Positions 10,058-31,700 of a DNA stretch of 53,667 nt are shown here, piece by piece (position 1 is the stretch's first letter; every line of letters begins with the position of its first letter). A model generated the notes under the pieces. It saw only the letters and a program-made list of their open reading frames with translations. It was not told the origin of the DNA and did no database searches. The translations under genes were made by a program, and so were the position numbers. The DNA comes from Elusimicrobiota bacterium (GTDB taxonomy: Bacteria > Elusimicrobiota > Elusimicrobia > UBA1565): contig JBDRPD010000099.1 of assembly GCA_043827405.1 (NCBI GenBank), positions 1 through 53,667 of the forward strand, given 5' to 3'.

Positions 10058-11092
10058 TCACTTCAGCGAGGCCAGGTCGATAACGTAGCGGTAGCGCACC
10101 TTGCCGGCCACGGTATTGTCGTAAGCCTCGTTGACCCGCCGCATCGGGATGACCTCGATCCAGGAGCCGATGCCGTGCTTCCCGCAGAAGTCGAGCATCT
10201 CCTGGGTCTCGGCGATCCCGCCGATCAGCGAGCCGGCGACGCGGCGGCGCCCGACCAGCAGCGGGAAGATAGGAAGGCCCACCGGCTTGTCCGGAACCCC
10301 GACGACGACCATTGAGCCGTCGCGCTTGAGCAGCCCGAGGTAGGGAGCGAGGTCAAGCGGCGCCGAAACCGTATTGACGATGAGGTCCAGAGTCCCGGCG
10401 AGCCGCTTGACGGCGTCCGGACCGGCGGCATATTCTTTCGCGCCCATCTTCAGGGCGTCCGCTTTCTTGACCTCCGAGCGGCTGAACACGGTCACCTCGG
10501 CGCCCATCGCGGCCGCCAGCTGCACGCCCATATGTCCCAGCCCGCCCAAGCCCATGATGCCGACCTTGCTGCCCTTGCCGACTTTCCAGTGGCGGAGGGG
10601 GGAATAAAGGGTGATCCCCGCGCACAGCAGAGGGGCCGCCTTGGCCAGCTCGATGTTGGCCGGGATGCGGAGCACGAAATCCTGGTGGCAGACCATCTCG
10701 GTCGAGTACCCGCCCTGGGTGGTCTGGCCCTCTTTGTCGACGCCGTTGTAGGTCACAACCATCTTGGAGCAGAACTGCTCCAAGCCTTCCTTGCAGGGGT
10801 CGCACTCGCGGCAGGAATCGACGAGGCAGCCGACTCCCACCTTGTCGCCGGCCTTAAACTTCTTGACGCCGCCGCCGACGGCGATAACGGTGCCGACAAG
10901 CTCGTGGCCCGGAACCATCGGGAAGGCCGACCCGCCCCATTCGTCGCGGGCCTGGTGGATGTCCGAGTGGCAGATGCCGCAGTATTCGATCTTGAAGCGC
11001 ACGTCGTCGGCGCCGACATCGCGGCGCTGGAAATTGAAAGGCTCAAGAGGCGATTTCGCCGCCATAGCGGCGTAGCCTTTGACGTCGATCAT
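10058..11092 (-). CDS. Zn-dependent NAD(P)-dependent alcohol dehydrogenase (AdhC/YahK, cinnamyl-ADH-like)
   Basis: CGICHSD, PGHE, structural Zn motif CRECDPC...C, LLCAG, GLGGLG, C-terminal RYVID. Confidence 0.95.
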   Translation of the reverse strand: MIDVKGYAAMAAKSPLEPFNFQRRDVGADDVRFKIEYCGICHSDIHQARDEWGGSAFPMVPGHELVGTVIAVGGGVKKFKAGDKVGVGCLVDSCRECDPCKEGLEQFCSKMVVTYNGVDKEGQTTQGGYSTEMVCHQDFVLRIPANIELAKAAPLLCAGITLYSPLRHWKVGKGSKVGIMGLGGLGHMGVQLAAAMGAEVTVFSRSEVKKADALKMGAKEYAAGPDAVKRLAGTLDLIVNTVSAPLDLAPYLGLLKRDGSMVVVGVPDKPVGLPIFPLLVGRRRVAGSLIGGIAETQEMLDFCGKHGIGSWIEVIPMRRVNEAYDNTVAGKVRYRYVIDLASLK

Positions 11093-11225
11093 GGGAACCT
11101 CCGGGAGTTGCCGGCTTGGTCAGATTTTACGTTTCTCGGCGGGATTTGGGAAGGTGGCGTGCTTACTGAAAGCGTGATATCATGTTTTTGCTGTTTGTGA
11201 TATGGCAGATGGGCGAGAGGTGAGC

Positions 11226-11660
11226 ATGAGGGTGTTCGCGGGTTTTTTTGCGCTTGGTCTTTCCCTGACGCTGCTTGAATGCGTTCATGCGACGAAGCCA
11301 TGCGCGCCTAGTTCGTGGTTTTCAAACAGGAACCGGTCTTCGGCCGAATGGTCTAGAATGGCCAAGTGGGTCGCTATCGCGAAAGTGACAAAGCGCAAAG
11401 AGATCATCGAACCTTATGCCAACTGCTATGTCGAAGATCGCTCCACGTGCGCCATGGAAGATCGATCCATCATCACGGTGAAAGTGATCCGCTTTGAAAA
11501 AGGCAAAGAGAAGATCAAGCGCCTGACGAAGAGCTATTGCGCCCCTCCGCCGCCGATCACCACTGGAGAGACGCTCCGATTCTATGGCGCAGATCCAGAG
11601 ACCTACATCTATTTTGAACGGCTGCAAGCTGCCCCGGCGGAGCCGAAACAGGAGAAATGA
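11226..11660 (+). CDS. Small exported Cys-containing hypothetical protein
   Basis: GAGG upstream of ATG 11226; hydrophobic N-terminus MRVFAGFFALGLSLTLL; stop abuts the next start. Confidence 0.7.
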   Translation: MRVFAGFFALGLSLTLLECVHATKPCAPSSWFSNRNRSSAEWSRMAKWVAIAKVTKRKEIIEPYANCYVEDRSTCAMEDRSIITVKVIRFEKGKEKIKRLTKSYCAPPPPITTGETLRFYGADPETYIYFERLQAAPAEPKQEK

Positions 11661-13052
11661 ATGAAAAATACGTTCTTATGTGTTCCAATTATTGGCATGC
11701 TTGTCGCGCTGGCGGGATGCGGGACAGGGTTGACGCGGGCGGCAAAACATGGAGATGTAACCACCCTGCAGAAACTGCTGGACCAGGGCGCGGATATTAA
11801 TAAAAGCGCCATGGGGTCCGGGACCATGGCGGCAGGGACGCCCTTATTTTACGCCGCGTATAACTGCCGCGCTGACGCGGCCCGGTATCTGGTGAACAAA
11901 GGGGCCGATGTCGAGGTCGCTGGCTACTTCAGGGGCGGTTTCTTCGTTGGGCGGCCCCTGCATGCTGCCGTCGAGAAGGACTGCGTTGAAGTGGCGCAGA
12001 TTCTTCTGGACGCCGGCGCAGATATTAATGCGAAGACCAAAACAAATGACTCGGCCCTGGCTAGTGCGGCTCGCCGCGGCAACATAAAGATATTGAAATA
12101 CCTGATTGCACGGGGTGCGGATGTTGATGATGCGACCAGCGTTCTGAGAAAAGATGGTGCGACCGGCATTCTGAGAAAAGATGGACATTCTGACGGTCTG
12201 GCCCTGCTTGAAAAATATGGCAGCCCTATCGTGTCGGCCGAAAAGCGGCCAAAAGAGCCTGCTGCGCCGCTGATCATATCTGATGTGGATGCACTTCCCC
12301 CGATGTTCGTCAAGCACGCCCGCAACGCCTACGCCATAGTAATAGGAATAGAGAACTATCGCCAGAAACTCCCCACAGCAGACTTTGCAGTCAAAGATGC
12401 TCGGACGGTAACCGATTATTTGACAAAGGTGCTGGGATATCCCGAAGAGAATGTCATCACACTCCTGAACGATCGTGCATCCAATGTCGATCTTGCCAAA
12501 TATTTCGAAAAGTGGCTGCCGAACAATGTCGAACGGGACAGTGCGGTTTTTGTCTATTATTCCGGCCATGGCGCCCCGAATCTCAAGACGGGTGATGCCT
12601 ATCTTGTCCCCTATGACGGCGACCCGTCTTTTATTGAGCAGACGGGATATTCATTGAAGAGAATGTATCAAGCTCTGGGCAAACTTCCGGCAAAAGAAAT
12701 TGTCGTTGCCCTGGATGCTTGTTTTTCAGGAGCGGGTGGAAGATCGGTTGTGGCGGAGGGCGCGCGACCGCTGGTGATGGAGCTTCAGACTTCTTTCGTT
12801 CTTACAAAGAATATCCAGGTCATGACCGCCGCTGCCGGCGATCAAATCAGTTCGACTTATAAAGATGAAGGGCACGGGCTTTTTACCTACTTCATGCTCA
12901 AGGGGATCAAGAACGAGAATGTCCTCAATCCGGACGGTTCCATCAAAATGAACGATCTGTTCGGTTACCTCAGGCCGCAGGTGGAACGTATCGCCCGGAA
13001 GCAATACAACAATGAACAGACGCCGCAGTTGATTGGGGCGACAAAGGATTAG
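11661..13052 (+). CDS. Lipoprotein with ankyrin repeats and a caspase-like peptidase C14 domain
   Basis: Lipobox LAGC; ankyrin motifs GTPLFYAA, PLHAAV, GADINAK; C14 motifs AIVIGIENY, YYSGHG, DACFSG, GLFTY, QTPQ. Confidence 0.9.
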   Translation: MKNTFLCVPIIGMLVALAGCGTGLTRAAKHGDVTTLQKLLDQGADINKSAMGSGTMAAGTPLFYAAYNCRADAARYLVNKGADVEVAGYFRGGFFVGRPLHAAVEKDCVEVAQILLDAGADINAKTKTNDSALASAARRGNIKILKYLIARGADVDDATSVLRKDGATGILRKDGHSDGLALLEKYGSPIVSAEKRPKEPAAPLIISDVDALPPMFVKHARNAYAIVIGIENYRQKLPTADFAVKDARTVTDYLTKVLGYPEENVITLLNDRASNVDLAKYFEKWLPNNVERDSAVFVYYSGHGAPNLKTGDAYLVPYDGDPSFIEQTGYSLKRMYQALGKLPAKEIVVALDACFSGAGGRSVVAEGARPLVMELQTSFVLTKNIQVMTAAAGDQISSTYKDEGHGLFTYFMLKGIKNENVLNPDGSIKMNDLFGYLRPQVERIARKQYNNEQTPQLIGATKD

Positions 13053-13977: not shown

Positions 13978-14099
13978 GAAGATGCTCGATAAACTCGCCC
14001 GATGCGCGCCTCCGGACCCGGCACGGGTCCGGCCCGCATCCAGTAAGCTAAGCATAACTCGTGCGGCGGGAACGTGCCAGGGTCGGGGAACGGCTGCGT

Positions 14100-15410
14100 C
14101 TAGACGGGCACGGCGGTCAGGTCATATTCGGAGGCGGCCGTGACATTGACGCGGGCGAACTCGCCGATGCGCAGGGCCGGCCTGGCGGCGGGAACGAGGA
14201 CTTCGTTGTCCACCTCGGGAGAGTCATGTTCGGTGCGCCCGACGAAGTGCCCGCCCTCCTTGCGGTCCACGAGGATGGTGATTGTCTTTCCGACCTTGGC
14301 CGCGTTGATCTCGAGGGAGATCTCCTGCTGGAGGGCCATCACCGCCTCGGTCCGCCGCTTCTTCTCCTTGGCCGGGACGTCGTCTTTCAGCGTGAAGGCG
14401 TGCGTGTTCTCCTCGTGGGAGTAGGCGAACATGCCGAGGCGGTCGAAGCGCGTCTTTTCCACCCAGTCCAGCATCTCGGCGTGATCCTTCCGGGTCTCGC
14501 CGGGGTAGCCCGCGATGAGGGTCGTGCGCAGCGCGATGCCGGGGACCTTCTCACGGATCGTCGCGACCAGCGCCTCGGTCTTGGCCTTCGTGGTGCCGCG
14601 GCGCATGGAAGCCAGCATCCGGTCGCTGATATGCTGGAGCGGAATGTCGAGGTACTTGCAGATGTTGGGACGCTCGCGCATCGCGTCCAGCACGTCCAGC
14701 GGGAAGCCCGCCGGAAAGGCGTAGTGCAGACGGATCCAGCCGATGCCCTTCACGTCGGACAAGGCCCGCAGGAGGTCGGACAGGCGCCGCTTGCCGTAGA
14801 TATCCAGGCCGTAGGAGGTGGAGTCCTGCGCGATGAGCAGGATCTCGCGCGTACCGGCGGCGGACAGGCGCTTCGCCTCGGCCACCAGGTCCTTAATGGG
14901 CGTGGAGACATGCCTGCCGCGCATCAACGGGATCGCGCAGAAGGAGCAGGGGCGGTCGCAGCCTTCGGAGATCTTGAAGTAGGCGTAATGGCGCGGGGTG
15001 GTGAGGAGCCTCTCGCCGACAAGCTCCTTCATGTAATCCGCGTTCAATGCCTTGAGAAGGCGCGGGAGGTCCGTCGTCCCGAAGTAGGCGTTCACCTCCG
15101 GGATCTGAGCGGAGAGGTCCGCTTTGTAGCGCTCGGAAAGGCAGCCGGTGACGAACAGCTTCTCGACCAACCCCTTCTTCTTCGCGTCGGCGTAGCGCAG
15201 GATGGTATCGATGGATTCCTGCTTGGCTTTGTCGATGAAGCCGCAGGTATTGATGATGACGATGGCGGCGTCGTCGGGGTCGGTCTCGTGCTCCACCTCG
15301 AAACGGTTCGCCTTGAGCTGCCCCATCAGGACCTCTGAATCATAGAGGTTCTTGGAGCAGCCCAAGGTGACGACGTGGACCTTGTTCTTCTTAAGGGTCT
15401 TGGTGCGCAT
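14100..15410 (-). CDS. rimO: Ribosomal protein S12 methylthiotransferase RimO
   Basis: LGCSKN, INTCGFI, VTGCL, radical-SAM EGCDRPCSFC, WIRLHYAFP, C-terminal TRAM with SPEVD. Confidence 0.93.
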   Translation of the reverse strand: MRTKTLKKNKVHVVTLGCSKNLYDSEVLMGQLKANRFEVEHETDPDDAAIVIINTCGFIDKAKQESIDTILRYADAKKKGLVEKLFVTGCLSERYKADLSAQIPEVNAYFGTTDLPRLLKALNADYMKELVGERLLTTPRHYAYFKISEGCDRPCSFCAIPLMRGRHVSTPIKDLVAEAKRLSAAGTREILLIAQDSTSYGLDIYGKRRLSDLLRALSDVKGIGWIRLHYAFPAGFPLDVLDAMRERPNICKYLDIPLQHISDRMLASMRRGTTKAKTEALVATIREKVPGIALRTTLIAGYPGETRKDHAEMLDWVEKTRFDRLGMFAYSHEENTHAFTLKDDVPAKEKKRRTEAVMALQQEISLEINAAKVGKTITILVDRKEGGHFVGRTEHDSPEVDNEVLVPAARPALRIGEFARVNVTAASEYDLTAVPV

Positions 15411-16312: not shown

Positions 16313-16355
16313 GATAGGTGAGGTGCGTGAGCGGCTTAAACGGACGGTTTGCTAA
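16313..16355 (+). repeat. Left att core: 43-bp copy of the tRNA-Ser 5' half plus 4 upstream bases
   Basis: GATAGGTGAGGTGCGTGAGCGGCTTAAACGGACGGTTTGCTAA is identical at 16313-16355 and 24894-24936; then one mismatch and CCGTT. No T-arm follows the left copy. Confidence 0.95.
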
Positions 16356-16449
16356 TCCGTTTCGGCGCCCTCGAAGGACCCGCCCTTGACGTTCTCTCCG
16401 ACGACAGTTCCGATCAGCAGCGATCCCTTGGTATCACGTTTGCGCGTTG

Positions 16450-16996: not shown

Positions 16997-17749
16997 ATGC
17001 TGAAAATCTTCTCATCATTACTATCAGTATCGCTTCTTCCAGGTCTTGTCTTTGGGGGAGAAGTTTCTGGAAAAGTGCAACTTGCGGGCGAGAGTTCCCA
17101 TGCCGGCATAGTCATAGAGGTGTGGGGAACGCCTGTCAAGGCGGAAACTGACGACCTTGGCAGTTATCTGATTCCCGATTTCCCTTCAGGTTCACATCAT
17201 GTGATCGCTTGGAAGTCTGGCTGGATGGCAGCGCAAGTATCTAATTTCAATTCTACCAATAGCGCACAAATCCCACTGATGGTTTTGAATCGTCCTTCTC
17301 CCGGGATGGAAGCTGCCGTCCTTGTCGAGAATCATGGTGAAAGCATGTGGGTTTCTGCCAATCAGGAATCCGTCGCCAAGATGATGGCTGAGTATGATCA
17401 ATACCAGGGATGGTGGATCGGTGGGATAGTGCGCAAGGATGAGTTTCAGGAGCATAAGTTCTTCTTTGATCCTTCGACTATTATCATTGCTGAATATGTT
17501 GCCGAACAGGGCCTACAAGCGACAATTCGGAAGATCAGAGATGACGTCGATGCTCATGAGGGGCAAAGACGATATATCGAAGCCAAGTTCACTGGATACA
17601 GGAATCTCCACAAGTCCTTTTCTGGTTCGGTGTCAGATTTCTGGAATCGACCTATCGGTGCAAGTTTAAGCCCTGTAAAGGATTTGATTGATCAGAAATT
17701 TGGACTTGGTTTAGAGCAGCCCCCATATAGGTACTGGGATTCGGAATAA
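16997..17749 (+). CDS. Exported protein with N-terminal carboxypeptidase-regulatory-like beta-sandwich
   Basis: Signal peptide, then VSGKV...ETDDLGSYLIPDFPSGSHHVIAWKSGW, the pattern typical of that domain. Confidence 0.7.
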   Translation: MLKIFSSLLSVSLLPGLVFGGEVSGKVQLAGESSHAGIVIEVWGTPVKAETDDLGSYLIPDFPSGSHHVIAWKSGWMAAQVSNFNSTNSAQIPLMVLNRPSPGMEAAVLVENHGESMWVSANQESVAKMMAEYDQYQGWWIGGIVRKDEFQEHKFFFDPSTIIIAEYVAEQGLQATIRKIRDDVDAHEGQRRYIEAKFTGYRNLHKSFSGSVSDFWNRPIGASLSPVKDLIDQKFGLGLEQPPYRYWDSE

Positions 17750-17808
17750 TGATTTATACGCCTCACAAGTCGTGCGCAAGTTATTCGAGATGCGTCGTGG
17801 AGGAGAAT

Positions 17809-18855
17809 ATGAGATCAAAGTATTTCAGTCTTTTATTTGTGGTTTTTCTAGCTTGCTTGTTGCTAACTCCAGCGATTTCCGCTGCTGCCACCGTCGAAGA
17901 AATTAAAGGGTCCAGCTCCGAAGAGCTTCAGGAGACTCAAGCTCTTCTCCAGAAGATGCTATCTGAACGTGCCAATAACCCCGAATCAACTAAAGTGGCA
18001 ATTCCATCACAAGGCCGACAGAAGGCTGAGGCCGAAGTCGGAAGATTCGGCCCACTCATGCACCGGCATCCCAAAACAGAGAAGCTGACAGAAGCCTCGA
18101 TCGCTGATGACGAATTTGAAACCAGGCCGGGCTACGTCGTGCGATATGGGGTTAGTTGTCCTAATACGAGTAAGCCCACCAACTTCTGTCTTGGCGTGGA
18201 TATCCTCAGCGTGCAAGGCCATCTTAACCATGGACCGGCCCCGTCTATCGAATATCTGTCACCGCAGTGCCATCTAAGGGTCCCCGGGAATAACCCTGTG
18301 TATTGGGAGTTCGTTGCTCCCAGCTTCGCATCACAAATTAGACTGGTTGTGGTCGCCTCAGGGGGATGCGGGAACACCTTGATGTGGAACGGCGATGTTA
18401 AGATCCCCGGACTAAAGAAGCTCGTCCCGGGTGAGGGCTATGAATTAATCGGAGCCACTCAAGCCCACCCTGAGACTCATTATTTGATGCCGGAAGTTGA
18501 AACTAATCTGCGGGGGATTGCGTCGAGCTATGCGGCGAGCTTCCCCGATGCGAAGCCGCTTCAAATTCACGACATAAGTCTGCCCTTGGGGGGGGTGCTT
18601 GATGTCTATTACTCTTTTAAACATCCCCATACTACCCATTGGTGGGGATATGAAGCCGATATTCCCCGTGATGAAATCCCTGAGGACCACAGAGCCAGAC
18701 TGGAGCAGATCATGGAAGAAGCCGGCGCAAGAGTGCTTGTCGAGCAGGTGCCTTACACGCAATCAACGCATTATCATCTAGATTTTACTCCTCCAGGTCA
18801 TGAGAGCTATTTGGAAACACCTTGGTGCTACTGCTTTCTGGGAGCGTGCAAGTAA
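17809..18855 (+). CDS. Exported MepA-like (LAS-type Zn) murein endopeptidase-family protein
   Basis: RBS GGAGGAG; signal peptide; C-terminal DISLPLGG...HPHTTHWWGYEADI (H-x6-D) and HYHL (HxH). Confidence 0.7.
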   Translation: MRSKYFSLLFVVFLACLLLTPAISAAATVEEIKGSSSEELQETQALLQKMLSERANNPESTKVAIPSQGRQKAEAEVGRFGPLMHRHPKTEKLTEASIADDEFETRPGYVVRYGVSCPNTSKPTNFCLGVDILSVQGHLNHGPAPSIEYLSPQCHLRVPGNNPVYWEFVAPSFASQIRLVVVASGGCGNTLMWNGDVKIPGLKKLVPGEGYELIGATQAHPETHYLMPEVETNLRGIASSYAASFPDAKPLQIHDISLPLGGVLDVYYSFKHPHTTHWWGYEADIPRDEIPEDHRARLEQIMEEAGARVLVEQVPYTQSTHYHLDFTPPGHESYLETPWCYCFLGACK

Positions 18856-18897
18856 GGAGGTCGGCGTTTTTGCTACTTCAATTCGCGGGGTGTTTGT

Positions 18898-20115
18898 ATG
18901 ACTAAGCAGATCTTTTCAAAAATCGCTGCGATCACGATTCTCACCGCTGTCGTTCTCGGCGCCAGTAGTTCTTTGCGAGCGAAATCGCCTGTCATCGATT
19001 TTGATAATGGCAGCGATTCAACAGGGACTATCGAAACGGCTCGTGAAAAGGGAGGATTGCGGCACCTCCTTCCTCGTTTCCTAGACCTTAAACCAGGGCT
19101 ACAGCCGGAAGAACTTAAACTGATTGAGGCTCCCTGGCCTTCGCCGGCGCCTGCTGTTTCGGATTCCAGCCAGGATTCGCTTTCACTGTTACAAGAGTTG
19201 CCACTCCCTAGTAGACTCCCCTGCGAAATTTATCCCGTTCATGAGGATGACTCGGGAGGCGAAACGCCCTCGCTCTGTGGTAATGCCCGAAAGACGAGCC
19301 AGAACCTCATGCCTTCAAAGGGCAAACGCGCCGTGAAAACTGTCGGTCGCTACGAACAGCTTATTACGGAAAACGAAGATTACAAGAAGGGGCTCGAGCT
19401 CAAAGAACAGCTTGGGTCTGTCGGAGAGGGCATACATTTTACAAATATCCACAATACGGGCGTTCCTGCTCCCGTACGCAACGCTTTGCTGGTGCAGTGG
19501 CAGGGGATCGAGTCAAGTAAAGGGGAATTGCTTCCGGATGCACGGGCGCTTGACGCTGGGGAAATCGATCAGCGTCGATTCGCAGTTAGACTGAACACTT
19601 GGTACAACAGATTGATTACCCGCAAAGAAGAGTACGAGAGCCAATACGCCACCTTTAAACGACTATGCCTGGGGCGAGGATTGCCACCCGACGAGTATGC
19701 GCAGTGTAAAGCATTCCAAGATGCCTTGTACTCCTGTGGGACGGCTCACAACCAGTCCGCGCAGGCTCATAGCGACTTGGTTGCACTTTGGAGAAGAAAC
19801 AAGGAGTGTCTTGAAACTAAAGGCGCTACACTACTGGAAAAGATAAAGAAATGGGCCGAGGAACTTATTCAGCCCTGGATAAAAAAGGCTCAGAGGGCTT
19901 TGCAAGGGGATTATGATTGCGCCGCAATTCCGCCCCCATCTCTTGCTAACAACAACGGGATTTGGGCGCTGCATTGCCGCTATCGATGTGGGTCTTACAC
20001 GGGGACATGCGGGATCGCAAGAGCCTTTGATCACGAGCCTACAGTGGGCGAGATTACTGCTGCCTGCCCGGACTTGTCAAAACGGCCGCCGGTAATATGC
20101 CCCGCTCCGTTTTGA
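18898..20115 (+). CDS. Secreted coiled-coil protein with Cys-rich C-terminal domain (polymorphic toxin candidate A)
   Basis: Signal peptide, PVIDFDNG motif, helical core paralleling 20546-21718, unrelated ~70 aa C-terminus with 6 Cys. Confidence 0.75.
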   Translation: MTKQIFSKIAAITILTAVVLGASSSLRAKSPVIDFDNGSDSTGTIETAREKGGLRHLLPRFLDLKPGLQPEELKLIEAPWPSPAPAVSDSSQDSLSLLQELPLPSRLPCEIYPVHEDDSGGETPSLCGNARKTSQNLMPSKGKRAVKTVGRYEQLITENEDYKKGLELKEQLGSVGEGIHFTNIHNTGVPAPVRNALLVQWQGIESSKGELLPDARALDAGEIDQRRFAVRLNTWYNRLITRKEEYESQYATFKRLCLGRGLPPDEYAQCKAFQDALYSCGTAHNQSAQAHSDLVALWRRNKECLETKGATLLEKIKKWAEELIQPWIKKAQRALQGDYDCAAIPPPSLANNNGIWALHCRYRCGSYTGTCGIARAFDHEPTVGEITAACPDLSKRPPVICPAPF

Positions 20116-20210
20116 TTTCAACGGACAGCCGCCCTGATGTTCGGAATATCTAGCGGAACGGCCAAGAGGAGAATTCTCTAGCGGAGATGGATTAAAGTTC
20201 AGGTCAGCCT

Positions 20211-20474
20211 ATGTTGAAATTTGAAGACATCGCGAACATCCCTGACCAGGAGTTGTTCCAGATCAACAACGACCTAACCCCTTCGGTTTTGGCAAAGGTC
20301 ATTAAAACCGCACCGAAAGAAATAGCCAAGAAGATTTTGTCGAACATCCGCTCCGACGTAGCGATGATGATTGAAAATATGGCGGAGAAACTTGGCGACC
20401 TTTCTCCATCTGATATTGAGTCTGCCCGCCAGAAAGTCCTTGAAGTGGCCGAAAATTACTACAGGACAAACTAA
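20211..20474 (+). CDS. Stand-alone FliG C-terminal-domain-like protein (immunity candidate A)
   Basis: FEDI...LAKVIKTAPKEIAKKILSNI...LGDLSPSDIESARQKV follows the FliG_C pattern; no flagellar genes nearby. Confidence 0.7.
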   Translation: MLKFEDIANIPDQELFQINNDLTPSVLAKVIKTAPKEIAKKILSNIRSDVAMMIENMAEKLGDLSPSDIESARQKVLEVAENYYRTN

Positions 20475-20545
20475 AGTGGTCGCACTGTTTTGCTGCTGAC
20501 GGATTTCTTTGAAGCTGTATTCTCTTAGCCATCGGAGACATAGAC

Positions 20546-21718
20546 ATGAATAGAAACTTCCTTTCTAGAATAGTTATCGGGTTGCTTGTCGCCATGGGGG
20601 CCCTAAGTTTCAGTCTCATTAGTCAAGCCGAGGCTCCCGCTATAGATTTTGAGCAAGGTTTTGAGTTACGCCCGGTGCTCGAGAACGTCAAGGGCAATGC
20701 CGCAAATGCCAAGGGATTGGAGAAGCTTATCGGCCCTGGGCAGGTTGCCGGTCTTATCCCGATGTTGCAGCCAGCCCCTTTGCCCCCAGAGCTTCAAGCC
20801 TTGAAGAAAGCCATGATGGCAGGATGGGTCTTTGGGCCATGGCAGCCGAAAATTTACCAGCACCCGTCTTATTTAAAAGCTCGACAGTATCCTCCGAAAG
20901 TTAATCAGCTCCCACCGGACGTTAGCGGACCCCTTCAGGCAGAGTGGAGGGAAAGAATTGCGGAGGGGAATGGAGCGATTGAGACCGCGAAGCAGCTCGA
21001 ACCCCAAGATCAGAAGCTTTATGACGATGGCGTCTTGCTGATTAAAGAGAAGGAGTGGCTGGACTCTGAGTCTGCAGAGATCGATGCGTGGCGGGCAAGA
21101 TATCAAAATAGGTGCTGGGTGGAGAATCCTCCTTCGGACTGCGAGGATGAGAGGCTCCGACTGAACGCGCGTATAGCAGCATTCAACGCAAGAGTCGGCG
21201 TTTACAATTCTAACCTCTCAGATTGGAGGCAACGCCGCGATAATATCAAGGACTCCGGCGAGAAACTCGATGCCAGAATCGCGGCTTGGGGGGAAAAACT
21301 TGATACCTATAGTGCAAAAGCCGAGAAGGCCTTAGAGGAAGCGGGCTGGACAACAGTTGTTTTCCAAGCACAAGGCGATGATATGCCTGATGGCGGCAAG
21401 TCTACTAAAGCAGATCTGCCAGGTCCCTTATGCCTAGAAGCAGGAGAACAACGGCTTATGGATCTCCAGTTATTGCTCACGGCCCGCGAACTTAGAGAAA
21501 GAGATCAGGCCATCGTTCAAGCTGCTACTTGGATGAGAAGTGCGGCTGCCGCCGGAGGATTACGTGGACGTCAACCTAACAAACCTTTTTACAATCCCAA
21601 CCCAACCCCCCGAAATGCGAGAATTGATATTGAAGTATTCCGAGGGTGGGCGTTTGTCCATTGCCCCGCTGCCCTTGAGCTAGTTGTGAGTGAAGATGAG
21701 CCAGGAACCAAAGAATAA
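20546..21718 (+). CDS. Secreted coiled-coil protein with distinct C-terminal domain (polymorphic toxin candidate B)
   Basis: RBS GGAG; signal peptide; PAIDFEQG; shared helical core; C-terminal QAQG...RELRER...GG...RIDIEVFRGWAF. Confidence 0.8.
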   Translation: MNRNFLSRIVIGLLVAMGALSFSLISQAEAPAIDFEQGFELRPVLENVKGNAANAKGLEKLIGPGQVAGLIPMLQPAPLPPELQALKKAMMAGWVFGPWQPKIYQHPSYLKARQYPPKVNQLPPDVSGPLQAEWRERIAEGNGAIETAKQLEPQDQKLYDDGVLLIKEKEWLDSESAEIDAWRARYQNRCWVENPPSDCEDERLRLNARIAAFNARVGVYNSNLSDWRQRRDNIKDSGEKLDARIAAWGEKLDTYSAKAEKALEEAGWTTVVFQAQGDDMPDGGKSTKADLPGPLCLEAGEQRLMDLQLLLTARELRERDQAIVQAATWMRSAAAAGGLRGRQPNKPFYNPNPTPRNARIDIEVFRGWAFVHCPAALELVVSEDEPGTKE

Positions 21719-21959
21719 TCCAGAAATATCTCAGAAGGTGAAGAAGCTAGAAGTCGAAAGGGCTCCTGGGTTCATGTACTTCATTGATGAAGAAGGTGAC
21801 GTCAGTCGCGTGGTTATGACTGATAAGATCGGCGGCCGAGATGCGATGGAGAAGGTCGTCAAGTTAGGACTCAATCGAGAGCCGGGGTTTTTGTACTTCC
21901 TTGATTCTGAAGGGGATATCTCTCGGTCTAAGGAAGCGCCTCCCCAAGAAACGCAATAG
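21696..21959 (+). CDS. Small two-repeat protein, CC1 chromatin-protein-like motif (immunity candidate B)
   Basis: KVKKLEVERAPGFMYFIDEEGDVSR and KVVKLGLNREPGFLYFLDSEGDISR; overlaps the 3' end of the upstream gene. Confidence 0.7.
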   Translation: MSQEPKNNPEISQKVKKLEVERAPGFMYFIDEEGDVSRVVMTDKIGGRDAMEKVVKLGLNREPGFLYFLDSEGDISRSKEAPPQETQ

Positions 21960-22061
21960 CGGCCGCTAATATCCTTCCCGGCGACACTAGTTTCTGTTTC
22001 CATTTCCCGACTCTATTACCCCCCAACCAACTCAGAAACAAAACAATCCAACGATTCTCAG

Positions 22062-22505
22062 CTATTTATCTTCCTGCGGGCGACCTGCGGGCATTGTCCG
22101 CAGCTTGACCATCCATATCCTCTGACGCAGAAGATTCTTTTGATCCCGGATCTTCTTGGGCGGAACATGCACCAACGGGGTTAGTCCGGCTTTCAGAATC
22201 GCGGCATGCGTCGTCGCATCGATCTTGTCGGTTTTTGTGAAGGTCTCAGCGATTAGGCGCATTCTCAATGGGTTGGCCAGCTTGGGGTTGAGCGACAACT
22301 CTTCCAACGCATCGTAGAGCACCCCCCAGTTTCGTCCTGCCTCCAAGACAGATTGAACCGATTCCCCCACAGGAAGAGATTCCTTCAGCTCCCGGAAGGC
22401 TTCCGGCTCGCTGCCCATCTTTCCGTCCCACAGAATTTCTCCCGTGTCGTTAATTACGACGACGTGAGAGAACTTTTTGTGATGGTCGATGCCAATGTGT
22501 ACCAT
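22062..22505 (-). pseudogene. Truncated IS110-family transposase (N-terminal DEDD domain only)
   Basis: HIGID, VLEAG, LANP and KTDKIDA motifs; ends after 147 aa with no C-terminal domain; RBS AGGAG upstream. Confidence 0.9.
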
Positions 22506-22597
22506 GTTAATGGGTCTCCTGTGTTTAGGGTATGGTTGATGTCCATAGCCCTGGAAGTCTAACACGGGAGGCCCTTCGCTTTCATCATGTTATCTGC
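22506..22597 (-). ncRNA. Structured IS110 upstream non-coding region (bridge/seekRNA-like candidate)
   Basis: Outer stem gggtctcctgtgtt (22512-22525) / aacacgggaggccc (22561-22574) and inner stem agggtatgg / ccatagccct, separated by an asymmetric internal loop. Confidence 0.4.
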
Positions 22598-23275
22598 GGC
22601 GAGCGGCTTCCGCCCTGCCCAACTGCGCTGGCCGGAACGAAAGCTCGACCAGAAGTGGCTCAGGTTTCGCTTCAAGCATCGGATGTCATATTTTCAGGAG
22701 ATCGTGGGAGTTGGTAGGAAAATGGACGGCTCGATTGCATTATAGAGTGAGGGAGCTTGAGCATTTGTATGGAAAAAGTGGGGACAAAATGGACGGCTCA
22801 AACGCATATGGGGGTGAGGGGAGTGCGCTCTAAAATTACTCGTTACTTTGGCCGGGGAAATTTTTTCTCAACATGGGAAAATGCCTTTAGGTCCCGGCAG
22901 AAACCGCATGTGCCGGCGCCTGAAAATCGGGATAAAGTGTCAACGATTTGGGGTGCTCGCCGGAATAGTGTAGGGGGGTATGCTGGCGGGAATCTGCGGA
23001 GAAGCGTCAACGATTCGGGGTCTTCGATCGAATGATTAAGTAGGAACTCTGGGAGGAAATGTGTGCGGAATCGGCGTGCTCGATTGAATGATTAAGTGAG
23101 AGCTTAAGGAATTGGGAACAACAGCGAAACGGAGACGGACGCGGCGGCGGATGTCCCCTTTTTGCGGGGTCGTGGGAATATTAAATGAGGGGTGACTTTG
23201 CGAAAAACCTGCCAGCAATTTGGGCGCATCGAGCGGATGATTATGCGGGGAACCCACCGATGAATAACCTTCTTG

Positions 23276-23299
23276 CCCCCTCTAACGTGTTAGAGGGGG
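23276..23299. repeat. Inverted repeat with perfect 11-bp arms
   Basis: CCCCCTCTAAC-GT-GTTAGAGGGGG in the long non-coding stretch upstream of xis. Confidence 0.8.
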
Positions 23300-23570
23300 G
23301 TGTGAATAACTGCGGGTACGGAATTGCGTCGATTACTCCTGCCGATATGCGCCCGCCTCGCCACCGGCTGCGCCGGTTTCGCCTCCCGACCCCGCTCCCC
23401 CAACCACAAGTGGTAAGTGGGAACGGGGTCGGGAGGAGGGCGGGCAAGGGCAGGAGTAAAGGACAGAAAAAGGGAGGTAAAGAGATCAGAAAACAACGGA
23501 AGGAACAACGGAGGAAACGGCAACCACACAGCAGAAAAACCAACAACTTAACTGCACAGGAAGGAGGTCC

Positions 23571-23816
23571 ATGGAAGCGGCAAAACATGACCTGAACCGG
23601 CCTAATCAGGGACGCTACCTCAACGAAAAAGAGCTCGGAACCTACGTCCGGATTTCACCGGCCAGCATCCGCAGACTTGTGCGGAACCAATCCATACCCT
23701 ACATCGTATTACCATTAGGAGAGGGCTGCCGGCGGACGATCCGCTTCAAGACTTCGGCCATCGACAAGTGGCTCGAGGCGCTTGAGCGTAAGCCTTTGAG
23801 GAAGGCGAGGGGATAA
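23571..23816 (+). CDS. Excisionase-like helix-turn-helix protein
   Basis: RBS AGGAGG; YLNEKELGTYVRISPASIRRLV...IPY...IRF...IDKWL; lies directly upstream of the integrase. Confidence 0.85.
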   Translation: MEAAKHDLNRPNQGRYLNEKELGTYVRISPASIRRLVRNQSIPYIVLPLGEGCRRTIRFKTSAIDKWLEALERKPLRKARG

Positions 23817-23836: not shown

Positions 23837-24874
23837 ATGGCGCTATTCAAGAGACCGAGCTCACAGTACTGGTACTACTCGCTGCAGATAAACGGCAAGC
23901 GGGTGTTCAAGTCCACCCGCGAAACCGACCGCAAGCGGGCCAAGCTGGTATGGATCGACAGCCTGCGCCGCTTCCGCGACCGCGAGCTCCACGGCGCTCC
24001 TTCCCGGATCACTTTGGGCGAGATGATAGAGCTCTATATGCGCGACCACAGCGCCCGTTTGAAGGCCCGGACGCACGAGACCGACCGCAGCCTCAAGAAC
24101 CGGATTCTGCGCGGCTTCAGCCCCAATATCAAGCTGAGAAGCCTCACCCCGCACCATATCGAGCGCTACATCGCCAAGCGCTCCGGCCGCGTCAAGCCCG
24201 GCACGATCAACCGCGAACTGACCTTCCTGCAGGGGCTCTTCACCAAGGCCGTGCGCTGGGGATTCGCCGCGACCAATCCCCTTACCCTGATCAAGAAGCT
24301 CAAGGAAGAGCGCAAGCCCGAGCGCTTTCTGGCCCCGGCCCAAAAGGACAAGCTCCTGGCTTCCTGCCGCGACAGCCTAAAACCCCTGGTCGGCTTCGCC
24401 ATGAAGACCGGCATGCGGATGTCGGAGATAATCGAGCTCGAGTGGAAGAACGTCAACCTCGATAAGAACCGCGTCTACGCGGTCGGAACCAAGGCCCACA
24501 AGACCCGCGTGATCCCGATCTCCCCGGCCACCCGGGAGACGCTAAAGCGCCTGCCCAAGCGGAGCGACCGCGTCTTCACTCAGGATAGCGGCAAGCCCTG
24601 GATCGTGGCAACGCTCGGCAAGTGGTTCGTCCGCGCCGCCCGCAAGGCCCGGCTGCCCCAAGATTTCACGTTCCACGATTTACGGCACACCTTCGCCCGG
24701 GATCTCCTAGACCGCGGAGTAGATATCTACACCGTATCCAGGCTTTTGGGGCACAGTTCCCTGCGCGTGACCGAGAGATACCTCTCGCATAACATGCCCG
24801 GGGCCGAGGAGGCTATTGGCAAGTTGGACCAAAGTGTTGTAAAAAGTGTTGTCAGTCGTTATTCGGCGGCCTAG
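23837..24874 (+). CDS. Tyrosine recombinase / phage-type integrase
   Basis: N-terminal arm-binding-like region; TGMRMSE, TKAHK, FHDLRHTFA, LGHSS, TERY (R-K-H-R-H-Y intact). Confidence 0.97.
   Translation: MALFKRPSSQYWYYSLQINGKRVFKSTRETDRKRAKLVWIDSLRRFRDRELHGAPSRITLGEMIELYMRDHSARLKARTHETDRSLKNRILRGFSPNIKLRSLTPHHIERYIAKRSGRVKPGTINRELTFLQGLFTKAVRWGFAATNPLTLIKKLKEERKPERFLAPAQKDKLLASCRDSLKPLVGFAMKTGMRMSEIIELEWKNVNLDKNRVYAVGTKAHKTRVIPISPATRETLKRLPKRSDRVFTQDSGKPWIVATLGKWFVRAARKARLPQDFTFHDLRHTFARDLLDRGVDIYTVSRLLGHSSLRVTERYLSHNMPGAEEAIGKLDQSVVKSVVSRYSAA
24832..24852 (+). repeat. Putative integrase arm-type site, right end (inside the int 3' end)
   Basis: Identical 21-mer to 16450-16470, 41 bp before the att core. 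Confidence 0.75.
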
Positions 24875-24897
24875 AAACCGCCGGATTGTCGTCGATA

Positions 24898-24987
24898 GGT
24901 GAGGTGCGTGAGCGGCTTAAACGGACGGTTTGCTAAACCGTTGTACGGGGTAAACCCGTACCGAGGGTTCGAATCCCTCCCTCACCG
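24898..24987 (+). tRNA. tRNA-Ser(GCT)
   Basis: Acceptor GGTGAGG/CCTCACC, anticodon arm ACGGT-TTGCTAA-ACCGT, long variable arm, T-arm GAGGG-TTCGAAT-CCCTC, discriminator G; CCA not encoded. Confidence 0.96.
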
Positions 24988-25739: not shown

Positions 25740-28700
25740 TTAGTGGGCGACGGGCAGGGTGAGGTAGGGGAAAGCCGTGCGGGACATTATCTGGCGCAGC
25801 GGCGGGCCGACGGCGGTCAGCGCCTTGACCGTCTCGCGCCGGGCCTTCTCGGCGACGGTCTGGCCCTCGAGCCGCGCGACTTCATCGGCGAGCTGCTGCA
25901 GCGAGGTCCCGCCGGCCGCCGGCTTGGCGAGCTCCCGGCGCAGGTGGTCGGCGCGGTCCGAGTACTGCCGCGAGCCGAGCCGGACCTGGGTCTCGGCGCG
26001 CACGCTGTCGACTTCGATATGGCCCGGATCGGCTTCCCAGGTGCCGGTGCCGCCGGCGCCCACCAGGCCGCCCATCTCGTTGAGAACCCGGTCGACGGCC
26101 TGCGAGCCGGTGAGGTGGTCGACCTTGGCGTTGGGATAGGTGCCGGCGCGGCCGCGGACCGTCTCGACGAAGGTCTGCTTGACGCCGCCGTTGAAGGCGC
26201 CGAGGATGCGGCCCCGGGCGTCCTCGATGTCCTCGCCGGCGTAGCGCACGTAGCGCAGCAGGCTGCCCGTGCCGAAGTGGATCTTCCGGCGCTCGGTCTG
26301 CGGGCCCTTCTCATGCTGCCACTCACCGACCCGGGTGGCCGAATCGTTCTCCACGGCATCCGGGAACTGGCTCGGATCCATGTAGCGGTCCACCTTGTCG
26401 GGCAGCAGCTCGAAGATATCGAGGAAGTGCACGATCTGCCCCATGGCGCCGCGGCGCACGGTGGCGCCGCCGTCGGTGCGGCGCATGTAGACGCGGCCGA
26501 TATAGCCGTGCTGGTTCGGGTCGCGCCCGGTGATCAGCTCGATCGGCGTCTTGATGATGCCGCGCGGCGTCTCAAAGACGATATTCGCCCAGTTCCAGGG
26601 CATGTAGGCCCAGCGGCCGACAGCGCCGAGCTCGTCGGCCGCTTCGTCCAGGCGCTGCTGCAGGATCTTGCGGCCCAGCAGGACGGGCAGCTTGGTCTCC
26701 GGGTCGATGTAGCGCTTGAGCCGGTAGGTGGGGGACATCTTGTAGTCTTCCTGCTTCCACACCCGGCCGGACATGTCCTCGATCCACCACTTCTCCGAGA
26801 GCTTCTTGAGCTCCTGGAGGTCCTGGAAGATGCGCACCAGCGCGCCCTTGGAGTCGAGCTCGATGGCGTGGACTTCACCGCTGACCCAGCGCGCCGCGGC
26901 GGCGCCGAGGCCGCGGGAGAAATCGGACTTGCGGTCGCGGATCTCGGCGAGCGTGCCGTCGGACGCCAGGCCCCATTCGAGATCCGTGGTGAGGTGGAAG
27001 CTCCACTTGAGCCGCGGGTCCGCCGCGGTCTCTTCGTCCTGCTCTTCCTTAACCTGTCCTTTCTTGAGCTTGGCGGCTGCGGCGGCGAGCTCTTTGCGCA
27101 TCGCCTGGTACTCGGCCTTGCTCATGTAGACCGCCGCGATGCCGCCGTCCTCGTCGATCGCGAAGGCGTAGGCTTCCAGCTTGAGATTGATCCAGCCCAG
27201 CTGCCGCGCGCGCTGCGCCTTGTCGTCGGCCTCGCGGATCAGGCTCTTGATGCCCTTGGCGCCGGTCCGGATCCGGCTGAAGTTCGCGGCCTCGGGGGAG
27301 CGCTCCAGAGCTTCCAGGCTGGCATAGAGGCCGAAGGCGGCGCCGCCCTCGGGCGCGGCGACCACGATCAGCTCGGAGGGGGCTTTCTTCTGCGCCGCGA
27401 TCGGGTGGATGGCGCGGCGCAGGCCGGTCGCCGGATCGGCCTCGCGGGAGAAGTAGAGCACGCGTCCCTCGGCTTCCAGGCGGCGCAGCTCTTCGAGGTC
27501 GAGCTTCTTGCCGGGCCGTCCGTCGGCGCCGACCATGACGAACTCGGCCTGCTTGAGCACGCTCTCGACTTCCTGTCCGGCGCGGGCCCGCTGCAGCTTT
27601 TCGCGCGCCTCGCTCAGCTCCTCGTCGAGCGCGTCCTGCCCGGCGCGCAGCTCGCTGGCGCCCAGCTGCTCGAGCTCCTTGACGGTCTGCGGCTGCTTGC
27701 CGGCATGCTCCGCCGGCAGGAGCCAGCGCCGGCCGTCGACGCGGACGATCCGCTGCGCCCGCTCAAAACCCTTGACGTCATCGCGCGTAAGCCAGTTCTC
27801 CACGCTCTCGTCCGCCTTGACGACGGCGTAGAGCGAGCGGATTTTGCGCGGATTCTCGAGCCAGCGCTTCTTCAGGTTTTCCAGATAGGCCAGCCGCTGG
27901 GCCACCGGCAGCTCCGCCGAGCGGCCGGCCTGCTGGTACTGCAGGGCCCGCAGATGCGCCTGCTCAACGGCGATCAGGGCGTCGACCGCGAGCATCGCGC
28001 GGCCCTGCTTAAGGAGCGTGCTGCGGCGCTCGATGCTGCGGCGCAGCGGGAACAGCTCGTTGAGGACCCCCGCGGCGCTCGGGTCCTGGCGCACCGCCTG
28101 CAGCGTGTAGGCGCGAACCACGGCCTGGTCGAACTCAATAACGGACCGCAGGTAGCTGTCGAGCGCCTTGTCCTTAAGGACGAAATCCTCGGGACGGGCC
28201 TGCGCGTCCAGGTAGCTCTCGAGCAGACCCTGGCGCAAGTCGTCCATGCGGCCGCGCAGCGTCTCGAGACCGGCGAAGATCTCTTCGACGGCGGGGGTCA
28301 GCTCGACGCTGCCCCAGCGCGCCTGGCGCATGCCGGCGAGCAGCTGCTGCTGCTGGGCGATCTGCTCCGCGGAGAGGGTGGTGCGGCCGCGCACGTCTTC
28401 GAGCAGGAAGCCGTTGAGCTGGCCCCACGGGGCGCTGCCCGAGCGCCGCGCCTGGTCGAGCGCCCGGTAGACCATGCCCTCCAGCTTCAGACGCTTGCCT
28501 TCGACGTCCAGCCGGGTGAGCAGGTCCAGCTTCTTGGCGGCGTCGATCTCCGAATGGTAGCGCGTCGCCTGCGCGGCTTCGAGCACCGTGCGGTAGACGG
28601 CGGCCTGCTCGGCGATCGCCGCGCGGTCATGCGCGGAAACGACGCCTTTGCCGTCGAACATGCCGTCGAGCGCCGAGGCGAAGTCGCCGTCGGCCAGCCG

Positions 28701-31700
28701 CTGCGAGATGTAGCGGGCCACATCGTCGAGCGTCCTGGAGCCGGGAGCCTCATCCGCGGCGCGGCTGCGGCGCGGCCGGAACGGGCCGGCGGCGGACCGG
28801 GACGGCTGGCCGAGGGCTTTGAGCTCGGTAACGAGATGGATGAAGTCGATGCGCAGGCCCGAGAGGGTGTCGATGAAATCCTCCCAGGCGGCGATGACGC
28901 CGCGCTGGGCCGAGGCGAGCTCTTCGCTGGTGGACTGTCCGCGCTCGAAGAGGGCGAGCATGCCGCTGAGATTGTCCTGCGCGGCGCGCAAGCGCGCCTG
29001 CTGCGCTTCGAGCAGCCGGGTCTTATCGATGACCGAGGCCATGAGCGCGTGCAGCTTGAGCGCCAGCCCCTTCAGGCGATCCTGCGACTGGAGCTCCTGG
29101 CGCAGGGCGTCTTCCAGTATCCCGCGCAGGCTGCTCTCGATCTTGCTCGGGTCCGGGGCCTCGAGGAAGGCGCCGGAGACCCAGCGTCCCCGGAACATGC
29201 CGATGGCGCCGACCGGCGTGAAGCCCTTGAAGCTCATCTTCTCGGCGATCAGGTTGGACTTGAGCTGGACCAGCAGGTCGCCGGCGCCCGAGAGCTCCTC
29301 GGGCAGCCCGCTGGTGAACAGGGAAGCGCGCAGCGCCTCGATATTGGTCTCCTCGATCTCGCGCAGGAAAACGCGGGCGGTCTCCGCCGGGCTGACCGCT
29401 TCGTCGCGCGGGATGAGCGGCAAAATCGCGTCGACCTGGATGTCGCGGCGCAGTCCGAGATGCGCCGCCACCTCGGAAAGGTCGCGGCTCACGCCGCGCT
29501 CGAGCTCCTCGAGCCACAGGCGGTTGACCGCGCCGCGGCCCTCGCCGCGCGCCCAGCTCAGCAGGCCGGCGTTGAGGCGCAGCCGCGCGAGCAGCACGCG
29601 CGCCCGGCCGCTCGCCTGGGCGATCGCCGCGCGGTGGATGTGATCCGCCTTCTCCTTCTGCAGCCCCGCCAGCGCCAGCAGAGCTTCGGGCGGCGTGGTC
29701 CGGCTCTTGAGCCGCACTTCGACCCAGCCCTCAATGAACTGCTTGCCGATCGGGTTCTTGCCGATCGACATGCGCGAATCGAAGAAGCGGATAAAGCCGT
29801 CGGCCGTCACCCGCTGGCCGCTGGCCGGAGCGCCGATCATACCCGACGCCCCGCCGATACCCGAGGAAGGCGTCTCGGCCTGGAACGCCGCGATCAGCCG
29901 GTTCTGCAGCTCGGCGAAGGTGGCGGGCAGGCCGGCGGCGGGCGCGGCGCCGGCGGCGTCGAAGCCGAACATCGCCATCTGCGCCCGCAGGCCGAACACG
30001 CGGGTTCTAAGGTTGTTGGCCTCGATGCGGGAGTTTACGTCGGAGCGGTACTCGAGCTCGTCGAGCCGCCGCGCCGACTGCTCCAGCTCGAAGTTGAGCC
30101 GCGCGCGCAGGGCGGGAAGCTCGCGCTCGAAGGCGCGCAGGTCGCGTTCCGCCTCCAGGGTCTGGTGCCGCGCCAGCGCTACCAGCTCCGGCGAGGCGTC
30201 GCCCGATCCCGAAAGCGCCGCGACCAGCCGTCCCAGCGCCCGCCCGATCAGGGAAATGGGCTCCACCCGGATGTCCTGCACCCGCAGGTTCTTGTCGACG
30301 ATCGTCTCCACGCTGCGGGCGACTGCGACCCGCTCGCGCAGGACGCCGAGCCGCGCGGCGAGGGGCGAGGCGGCGCCGAAGCGCTCGAGCATCTCGGCGA
30401 GGACCTCCGCGGGGTCCTTTTGCATATCCAGCTGCGCTCCCGCCGGCCGGCCGAGCAGGTAGTTGACGGTGACCAGGAGCTGATTCTCCTGACCGATCAA
30501 GGTGTTGATCTGGCTGCGGATGCGGGTCAAGGCATGCTGGTCCGCGGCCGAGCCGTTGGCCGCCGCGCGCTCGCGGGCGGGCAGAACTTCATTGCGCAGC
30601 ATGGCGAGCGTGTTCTGGACGCCGCGGTAGCTGGTATAGGCGGCGAAGAACTGGAAAGCGAGGTCCGCATCGAGGTTCTGCTTGAGATGCTCGAGCATGG
30701 CCGACTCGCCGCCGCGCCGGCCGCTCTGCAGCTCCTTAAGCTCTTCGGGCTTCATGCGCATCCCGACGATGGGGAAGATGCCGAGCCCGGTCAGGCCGAG
30801 CGCCGGCAGCAGGCTCACGCCGTCCGCGGTCACATTGGCGCCGACGCTGACGTCGACGGAAACCTTCTCCATGCGCTGTCCCGCCGCGCGCAGCAGCTCC
30901 GCCACCGCCTCGGAGCGCTTGGCCAGCGACTCCAAGGAATGGCTGTTGGCGAGCGCGGAGCGCATCGCGCCGTCGAGATCGGTGACGGGGGCGGCGGGGG
31001 CGGAGCCGGGATGCCCGCGGCGCAGGTCGATCTCGCCGCCCTGGCGGTAGTCCAGCGCCGCCCAGGCCCGGCTGAGCGCCTCGCGGGCGCGGGCGTCGAA
31101 GAGCCGCGTGATGTTCCAGTGCCAGCGCTCGAAGGCGGTCCACAGCGCGTCCTGGCCGGAAAGCCCGTTGCGGTACTTCTGAATCTCTTTGCCCAGCGCC
31201 CGCGCGGCCTCGGGCGCGGCCTCGCGCAGCATCTCGACCTGGGACTTGTAGGACGCGGCTTCCTGCAGCTCCTTGGCGGCCCGCAGCTGGAAGCCGCCGT
31301 AGACGTCCTTCATGTCGCTGATGATCGCCTCGGACTCCAGGGTCATCGCCTTCTCGTGCAGCTTGCTGTTGGGGTCGTAGATCGGGAGGCGGATGGAAAT
31401 TCCCGCGCCCAGGACCTGGTTGCCCAGCAGATCGTGGAGCTGGGCGCCGAAGGACAAGGTCATCTGCTCGATCCACGGGATCCAGTCCATAAGGTTGAAG
31501 GACTGCTCCGGCTGCGGGAGCTCCGAGCGGTCGAGCTTCTTGAGCAGCAGGCTCAGACGCAGCGGCCGGTCGAGGAGCTTTCCGAGAATTCCCAGCAGGG
31601 CGTCCATATCCTGCGGGTTGACGTCGTTGAAGGGCGGCATGGCGTCGGGCGAGCGGCCGGTCAGCAGGTTGTACTGCAGCTGCGCCTGGCGGTAGCGCGC

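Follow-up and report, generated by a model that had tools for sequence, protein, structure and literature searches.

A shared trunk, predicted to be a hairpin, with exchanged tips points to a probable unnamed family of polymorphic toxins in Elusimicrobia

What kind of system is encoded by two neighboring genes for large, exported-looking proteins, each followed by a very small gene, in the genome of an Elusimicrobiota bacterium (assembly GCA_043827405.1)? The genes lie on contig JBDRPD010000099.1, of which positions 1 to 53,667 of the forward strand were analyzed (53,667 nucleotides (nt); hereafter the window). A preliminary description proposed that protein A (405 amino acids (aa); 18898..20115, + strand) and protein B (390 aa; 20546..21718, +) share a secreted trunk, diverge completely in their C-terminal tips, and are each paired with an immunity gene, here termed iA (87 aa; 20211..20474, +) and iB (87 aa from an ATG, or 89 from the GTG at 21690; 21696..21959, +). 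All four open reading frames (ORFs) are present as the ORF list gives them. The analysis reported here demonstrates a common trunk, repeated exchange of tips, covariation of tips with downstream genes, and a low-GC (guanine plus cytosine) island carrying an integrase and attachment-like repeats. Judged from their sequences, A and B probably belong to an unnamed polymorphic toxin family with toxin and immunity genes, and they are likely exported toxins directed against other bacteria and neutralized by their partners.

Both proteins consist of a predicted signal peptide, an FDxG leader, a trunk (residues 150-337 of A, 19345..19908, +; residues 97-265 of B, 20834..21340, +), and a tip, which in A is a Cys-rich segment of 68 aa (19909..20112, +) and in B a QAQG-type alpha+beta domain of ~107 aa (21341..21661, +). 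All of the motifs originally listed are found, in colinear order, when their positions in A and B are compared: IDFxxG (residue 31 in both), QW 200 and EW 133, C257..C270 and C190..C199, WRR 298 and WRQ 227, KKWAE 317 and AAWGE 246, and KAQRAL 330 and KAEKAL 258. Similarity between the trunks is weak yet above chance (BLASTP E 4e-4, 22% identity across 98 aa; alignment score 74 versus a maximum of 55 among 1000 shuffles), whereas the tips align at the level of chance, with 733 of 1000 shuffles scoring as high. When A and B are used as separate queries, 8 of the 9 outside matches of A recur among the 14 of B; a scan of 301 phylum genomes matches B in 8 of them and A in 6, counting the genome of origin. 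The loci are for the most part the same, and the majority of the alignments end near B265/A340; matches that carry a name are Elusimicrobia. A profile-profile comparison of A and B (probability 99.9%) likewise ends at A337/B265, although this result is not fully independent because the profile members were partly picked with a profile holding both proteins.

A trunk profile of 172 positions built from 14 trunks recovers, as anticipated, homologs whose C-termini are diverse and whose downstream genes vary in step with the tip; A itself, which is included in the profile, matches it at E 3e-52. The distribution of the trunk is narrow, with matches at E<=1e-5 in 29 of 393 genomes of the class, all within three families (4 of 16 other genomes of the own family, 16 of 78 in f3, and 8 of 80 in f5; 0 of 145 in f4), and in 9 of 301 genomes of an even phylum sample, none of them outside the class. 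Among 1.84 billion representatives there are 139 matches at E<=1e-10, the weakest of which include generic coiled coils, and 68 at E<=1e-30. Some matches near E 1e-9 to 1e-11 carry names from other phyla and retain a cysteine-capped hairpin, so the hairpin may predate the trunk family. Such distant proteins (P0132, P0140, P0141, P0146, and P0149) include some named Alphaproteobacteria or Ca. Sungiibacteriota, and the C-terminal end of P0132 resembles a Cys/His amidase-like domain by eye.

The statement that the trunk is not of the RHS, CdiA, LXG, or MafB type agrees with the domain searches, in which RHS, haemagglutinin, LXG, and DUF1020 domains have no Pfam or NCBIfam match in A or B at E<=0.1 and none among the 14 trunks at E<=1e-4. 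In line with the suspicion that the delivery domain may be undescribed, no Pfam family covers the ~170-residue trunk, only scattered coiled-coil matches being found for the 14 trunks, and comparison with PDB sequences gives two generic coiled-coil matches only. In an AlphaFold model of B made from 22 sequences (mean predicted local distance difference test (pLDDT) 85, predicted template modeling score 0.71), a low-confidence stretch of 70 N-terminal residues is followed by a short helical cap, two 67-residue helices (124-190 and 199-265; hairpin pLDDT >90) with the invariant C190 and C199 at the turn, and then the tip. The trunk is thus predicted to be a two-helix hairpin ~100 Å long (67 residues x 1.5 Å) with a cysteine pair at its turn, so that the tip would return to the base. 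Foldseek finds nothing at E<=0.001 with either whole B or its tip as query, and the proteins that the trunk resembles in structure are helical hairpins of a generic kind (Z 10.2 at best); that to PDB 7nna ('toxin import through TolC'; Z 8.8, root-mean-square deviation 3.9, 145 aligned residues) is not above this background.

The tips are far more varied. The best 150 representatives and 48 genome loci yield 157 members covering the trunk end and 136 distinct tails; with labels assigned from local profiles and motifs, the 129 distinct tips of at least 45 aa comprise 40 Ntox16-like, 25 B-type, 18 immunoglobulin (Ig)-like (by eye), 5 A-type, and 41 other tips. Pfam Ntox16 (PF15523) exceeds its cut-off in 28 of 111 scanned relatives, and Ntox16 is listed as a polymorphic-toxin domain in the available text of Zhang 2012 (PMC3482391). 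Tip B also forms the C-terminus of an RHS protein (P0160, E 2.6e-23) and of a DUF637-bearing protein (P0161, E 2e-4). The proposed polymorphic toxin and immunity layout is therefore supported, since some tips are listed toxin domains or are common to RHS proteins. Trunk-less ORFs with a B-type tip occur in two other genomes, with records named Poribacteria and uncultured bacterium (L079:2483-3232 and L080:2414-3253, one of them cut short), and an acidic gene (131-146 aa) lies downstream of the tip. Exchange of tips is visible in two paralogs of G264, which are 99.4% identical across 857 nt and then continue into unrelated tips and partners. On a quick tree of 124 trunks (5 distant or short rows left out), the B-type tip needs 8 changes, 6 of them forced by starred branches, and the Ntox16 tip needs 18, of which 9 are forced; the tip labels are still clustered relative to shuffles. 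The six cysteines of tip A are all kept in the five A-type proteins, and tip B, which reaches a pLDDT of 93 when modeled alone, has conserved residues Q274, Q276, R319, R359, and D361.

Downstream genes change with the tips. Among the 43 loci where the tip is complete and a gene was called behind it (the automatic pick being doubtful in a few, e.g., L041 and L045), 81 of 114 same-tip pairs have a partner cluster in common versus 4 of 789 different-tip pairs; none of 2000 permutations reached 81, a value that overstates the covariation because the 14 Ntox16 loci and related genomes dominate. One partner cluster, DUF6714 where scanned, is found in 12 of the 14 Ntox16 loci. The partner overlaps the stop codon or starts at most 20 nt away in 39 of the 43 loci, and only 1 of 41 partners has a hydrophobic N-terminus. 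Partner-like genes also occur in strings (DUF6714 twice, FliG_C three times, and a sub-cut-off Imm50 match). An unrelated carrier of 966 aa with trypsin-like and Ig-like parts and an Ntox16 tip (L111:723-5235, on G174:C9) precedes three genes, namely DUF6714, one of unknown kind, and FliG_C standing alone.

As described earlier, an 87-aa gene follows each of the two large genes; what had not been noticed is that iA and iB alike are changed versions of proteins of the host. Neither small gene falls into an immunity family known so far. iA aligns with positions 18-99 of the 108 of FliG_C (PF01706, E 4e-15) and begins where solved structures of FliG have their MFxF motif; its 87 aa hold the C domain only, the N and M domains of a flagellar FliG not being found. 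It stands next after the tip in all three A-type loci with context (its own, L051 with three tandem copies, and L074), a pattern that makes iA the likely cognate partner of tip A. The FliG_C domain type is present in 178 of 393 class genomes and, among the matches listed, lies nearly always inside a protein of ~660 aa. Two further short copies among those listed also belong to partner strings: in G180 one is the second gene after a trunk locus, and in G174 one is the third gene after the 966-aa Ntox16-ended protein; unlike flagellar FliG, the iA type is thus a lone gene of 85-90 aa in toxin-partner strings.

The host's own 660-aa FliG-like protein (FliG_M, FliG_C, and TPR), encoded near FlbD, MotA, and MotB genes, is 30% identical to iA, and the search profile scores 65-73 bits on it versus 50 bits on solved flagellar FliG. 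Descent of iA from this protein is possible, but in the tree the 7 short copies fall outside its clade on long branches. Five large proteins of the same genome combine a hydrophobic N-terminal part, a FliF-like extracytoplasmic region (by eye), a membrane segment, and FliG_C (C49:9646-11628, C54:~21047-22585, C42:~20688-23174, C52:~14007-15305, and C68:~31379-33080), and the C49 member lies near FlbD, MotA, and MotB genes. Flagellin, FlhA, and rod/hook domains (PF00669, PF00771, PF06429) have no match in this 98%-complete genome, and the FliG/MotA/MotB set is a candidate for a rotary machine without a flagellum.

iB belongs to a family found in 93 of 101 genomes of the order, almost always in single copy, as a highly conserved basic two-repeat protein of 73-79 aa; the core copy of the present genome (C83:153113-153346, - strand) lies near rpsF/ssb/rplI-like genes. 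The isoelectric point (pI) is 9.9-10.3 in the 11 core copies extracted versus 4.85 in iB, which has no match in Pfam or PDB and only unnamed Atlas neighbors. From its position alone, iB is a possible partner of tip B. There is, however, an appreciable though lesser chance that the toxin family is real and that iA and/or iB are not the cognate immunity genes; iB in particular would then have been captured as a passenger, and B would be an allele that is inactive or lacks protection. iB has been seen once, a second intact copy of its family occurring only in the own genome (G000; two other genomes show two partial matches), and tip B with its tail has a net charge of -3, whereas the net charge is positive for 19 of the 24 other distinct B-type tips listed. 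On the other hand, iB overlaps the end of B by 23 nt, as most partners in the family do, its shift in pI from ~10 to 4.85 looks like repurposing, and iA recurs in all three of its loci. B-type tips moreover already pair with two unrelated families, namely HEAT-repeat proteins at four other B-type trunk loci and the acidic proteins of 131-146 aa at L079/L080, and there is precedent for one toxin with unrelated, acidic immunity proteins in the available text of 10.64898/2026.09.22.753552. The HEAT partners are basic (pI ~10), and the idea that all B-type partners are acidic DNA mimics was rejected for this reason.

Borrowed host proteins are a minority pattern among the partners, since 16 other downstream or partner-type genes have no NCBIfam match and, HEAT repeats aside, only 4 of 43 first partners are host-like by BLAST against the genome that carries A and B. 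One further case, in G496, is a lone gene for EF-G domains III-V, 46% identical to that genome's full EF-G, that overlaps the stop codon of a gene with an Ig-like tip; a 74%-identical fragment is the second gene 3' of a trunk locus in G291, both genomes being of one genus. That EF-G fragments occur only at toxin loci was rejected, a third one (G491) having a non-toxin context. Extra target copies confer self-resistance in antibiotic gene clusters, and the loci described here are analogous in that a core gene (FliG_C, the core basic protein, or EF-G III-V) is present in a second, diverged version beside a putative weapon gene. Here, unlike in those clusters, the weapon would be a protein, and fragments or charge-reversed copies could titrate a target and hardly replace it. 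It is conceivable, though rather doubtful, that these partners act as decoys: the tips would bind and jam conserved proteins of related cells, namely the FliG-like rotor of the flagellum-less MotA/MotB machine, the universal small basic protein, and EF-G, while the producer's stripped-down copy of the target soaks up the tip. If so, each partner gene would name the target of its toxin. Alternatively, the partners may serve as general-purpose scaffolds for binding.

The cysteine content of the tips raises a different question, namely whether these are toxins at all. A, B, and their relatives could instead be non-toxic, variable surface or secreted proteins for recognition of kin, prey, or surfaces, in which a binding tip rich in disulfides is presented on the stalk and the gene that follows codes for a chaperone or a signaling partner. 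The tips are often small and rich in cysteine, with an even count in 106 of 129; a CxYxC module is found in 42 of 129 and also in a protein that has the leader and lacks the trunk; 18 tips look Ig-like; and the distant hairpin relatives outside the phylum have just a short Cys tip. This explanation is nevertheless improbable in view of the Ntox16 tips and the tips common to RHS proteins, the strings of partner genes (one of them also behind the unrelated Ntox16-ended trunk at L111), the lack of export signals on the partners, and the patchy, low-GC nature of the insertions.

Several observations do weigh against the interpretation of A and B as toxins with immunity partners. At least 4 cysteines are present in 95 of 129 tips, and such tips suit extracellular disulfide domains and not cytoplasmic enzymes, which clashes with cytoplasmic partners. 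Ntox16 is itself only a predicted toxin, and neither tip A nor tip B belongs to a known toxin family; tip B has no match among PDB sequences and no clear structural match among the folds searched (best VIA, Z 3.8), which is not proof of a new fold. iA starts 95 nt past the stop of A, and iB may be a passenger because the four other B-type trunk loci have HEAT partners. Orphan tip cassettes next to trunk genes were not noticed in any of 43 loci, for most of which only ~1-3 kb of downstream sequence was covered, and no conserved export or processing gene was found upstream, where 39 loci show 37 different clusters; the notion of a dedicated upstream export gene was accordingly dropped. The dominance of Ntox16 loci in the covariation count points in the same direction.

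How such proteins might leave the producer is suggested by their N-termini. The signal peptides claimed for A and B are supported in that both N-termini are hydrophobic, as judged by a hydrophobicity count and inspection; by a simple count the same is true of 68 of 97 full-length trunk members. The IDFxxG motif, which had been taken as a mark of the trunk, is present in both proteins and does not define the trunk: it is a lineage-wide leader that also occurs on unrelated exported proteins. The strict FDxG motif follows the hydrophobic N-terminus in 33 of the 97 members, and the leader opens six unrelated exported-looking proteins of the own genome by pattern search and a seventh by profile (E 1e-7). 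FDQG[VI]D leaders directly past a predicted signal peptide are found there at C53:180309, C54:33541, C54:39610, C54:105597, C76:2440, C83:188491, and C83:191066, and also at L059:7047-8063; one carrier is subtilase-like by eye. The leader is possibly a lineage-specific sorting signal.

In the favored interpretation as toxins, A and B would be exported by Sec through the signal peptide, the leader would route them via a lineage-specific export step common to other exported proteins and lead to release, and disulfides would form outside the cytoplasm. The hairpin stalk might then engage a related cell by way of a receptor or channel, and the tip would act in the cytoplasm, as the partners lack export signals; iA would bind tip A and iB would probably bind tip B, both having been recruited from host proteins. 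Every step past export is inferred. That the proteins are instead effectors aimed at prey or eukaryotic hosts, and not at kin, is very unlikely: dedicated, tip-specific partners imply self-toxicity, the partners resemble bacterial proteins (FliG, EF-G), and a lipobox past the signal peptide is found in just 1 of 97 members. APD1/APD2 of Amoebophilus do also combine a signal peptide, a lineage-specific N-terminal domain, and variable C-ends in the available text of PMC3482391, which speaks for effectors.

Among known systems, the family has several of the features by which polymorphic toxin systems are recognized in the available text of Zhang 2012: a conserved N-terminal trafficking region, C-termini exchanged by recombination that are toxin domains common to other carriers (as seen for Ntox16 and tip B), and an adjacent tip-specific partner together with partner strings, iB being a single case. 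According to the same text (PMC3482391), MafB (MAFB-N/DUF1020) and Microscilla-N likewise have a signal peptide, a lineage-restricted constant domain, a variable C-terminus, and an adjacent partner. Unlike MafB, the present trunk has no DUF1020 match and is predicted to be a long hairpin and not a globular domain, there is no conserved upstream MafA-like lipoprotein anchor (37 clusters among 39 loci), and the trunk genes occur as insertions, one or two at a time, at dispersed sites. RHS toxins and Ntox16 carriers have tips in common with the family (Ntox16 in 28 of 111; a B-type tip on an RHS protein), while A and B are without RHS repeats. The Ntox16 row of the Zhang table (PMC3482391) gives no partner, so the DUF6714 partner is absent from it.

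Colicins and pyocins have a long coiled-coil receptor arm; colicins have no signal peptide and leave by lysis, and uptake of colicin-like bacteriocins depends on a receptor and on Tol/Ton. Their layout, with a poorly ordered N-terminal part, a long two-helix hairpin, a tip at the base, and a coupled partner gene, resembles that predicted for B; A and B differ in their predicted signal peptide and disulfides and have no sequence match to solved structures. SitA of myxobacteria is a lipoprotein toxin, and the scarcity of lipoboxes in the trunk family sets it apart from the SitA and APD lipoprotein toxins.

In the decoy interpretation, delivery would proceed via a Sec-exported, disulfide-tipped stalk of ~100 Å whose N-terminus carries FDQG as a sorting leader; no description of such a route of export and entry was found in the literature searched. 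No description of the trunk family, of FliG_C partners, or of decoy immunity was found among the open-license papers listed, although the trunk or tip B could be named otherwise in the supplements of PMC3482391. For the polymorphic toxins, the family would mean an additional, unnamed delivery trunk from a phylum that has hardly been studied, and it would provide a library of more than 100 tips, most without a family, with tip-partner pairs; tip B is a confidently modeled domain without a clear solved match that is also used by other carriers. The locus further points to two unexplained features of the host, the FDQG export leader and the FliG/MotAB machine without a flagellum.

The four genes lie in a low-GC island of 8.6 kb bounded by 49-nt repeats (16313..16361, +, and 24894-24942) that are identical to each other at 48 of 49 nt and copy the 5' part of a tRNA-Ser. 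The right repeat overlaps tRNA-Ser(GCT) (24898-24987; together 24894..24987, +). By domain matches, the island also encodes a tyrosine integrase (23837..24874, +), an HTH_17 excisionase-like protein (23571..23816, +), and a fragment of an IS110 transposase (22062..22511, -). GC is 0.46-0.54 across 17000-22999 versus 0.63 for the genome, and trunk genes have a GC below that of the upstream DNA in 35 of 39 loci. A contig from a public run that may itself be the source of this DNA covers 18168-23400 with zero differences; no excision joint of the island was found in the contigs searched, and no RNA data set containing the locus was listed. Elsewhere, trunk-partner cassettes are often located inside core translation operons (e.g., after fusA in L005 and L021, between rplJ-/rplL-like genes in L013, before an rplD-like gene in L047, and before an rplM-like gene in L058), and the start of the L005 ORF resembles the first residues of EF-Tu by eye.

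Two further island genes precede A. The first (16997..17749, +; 250 aa) has a hydrophobic N-terminus and a weak, sub-cut-off carboxypeptidase-regulatory-like match and was not seen adjoining other members of the trunk family. The second (17749..18855, +; 368 aa) has no family and no PDB sequence match; its His-rich C-terminus may resemble that of MepA-type murein endopeptidases. A 32%-identical homolog of this gene lies 5' of the tandem trunk locus L059 (G480:C82), which repeats the layout seen here, with two tandem trunk genes and their partners behind it and a doubled Ntox16-like tip on the second. At the left of the window are large genes without an NCBIfam match (45-4475, 4734-6188, and 6696-9803) and an ankyrin-plus-caspase protein (11661-13052; GC ~0.51-0.58), and the region 45-13052 is possibly a second island. 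To the right of the island, a protein of 4027 aa is encoded at 25740-37823 (- strand), which may represent an export or entry route.

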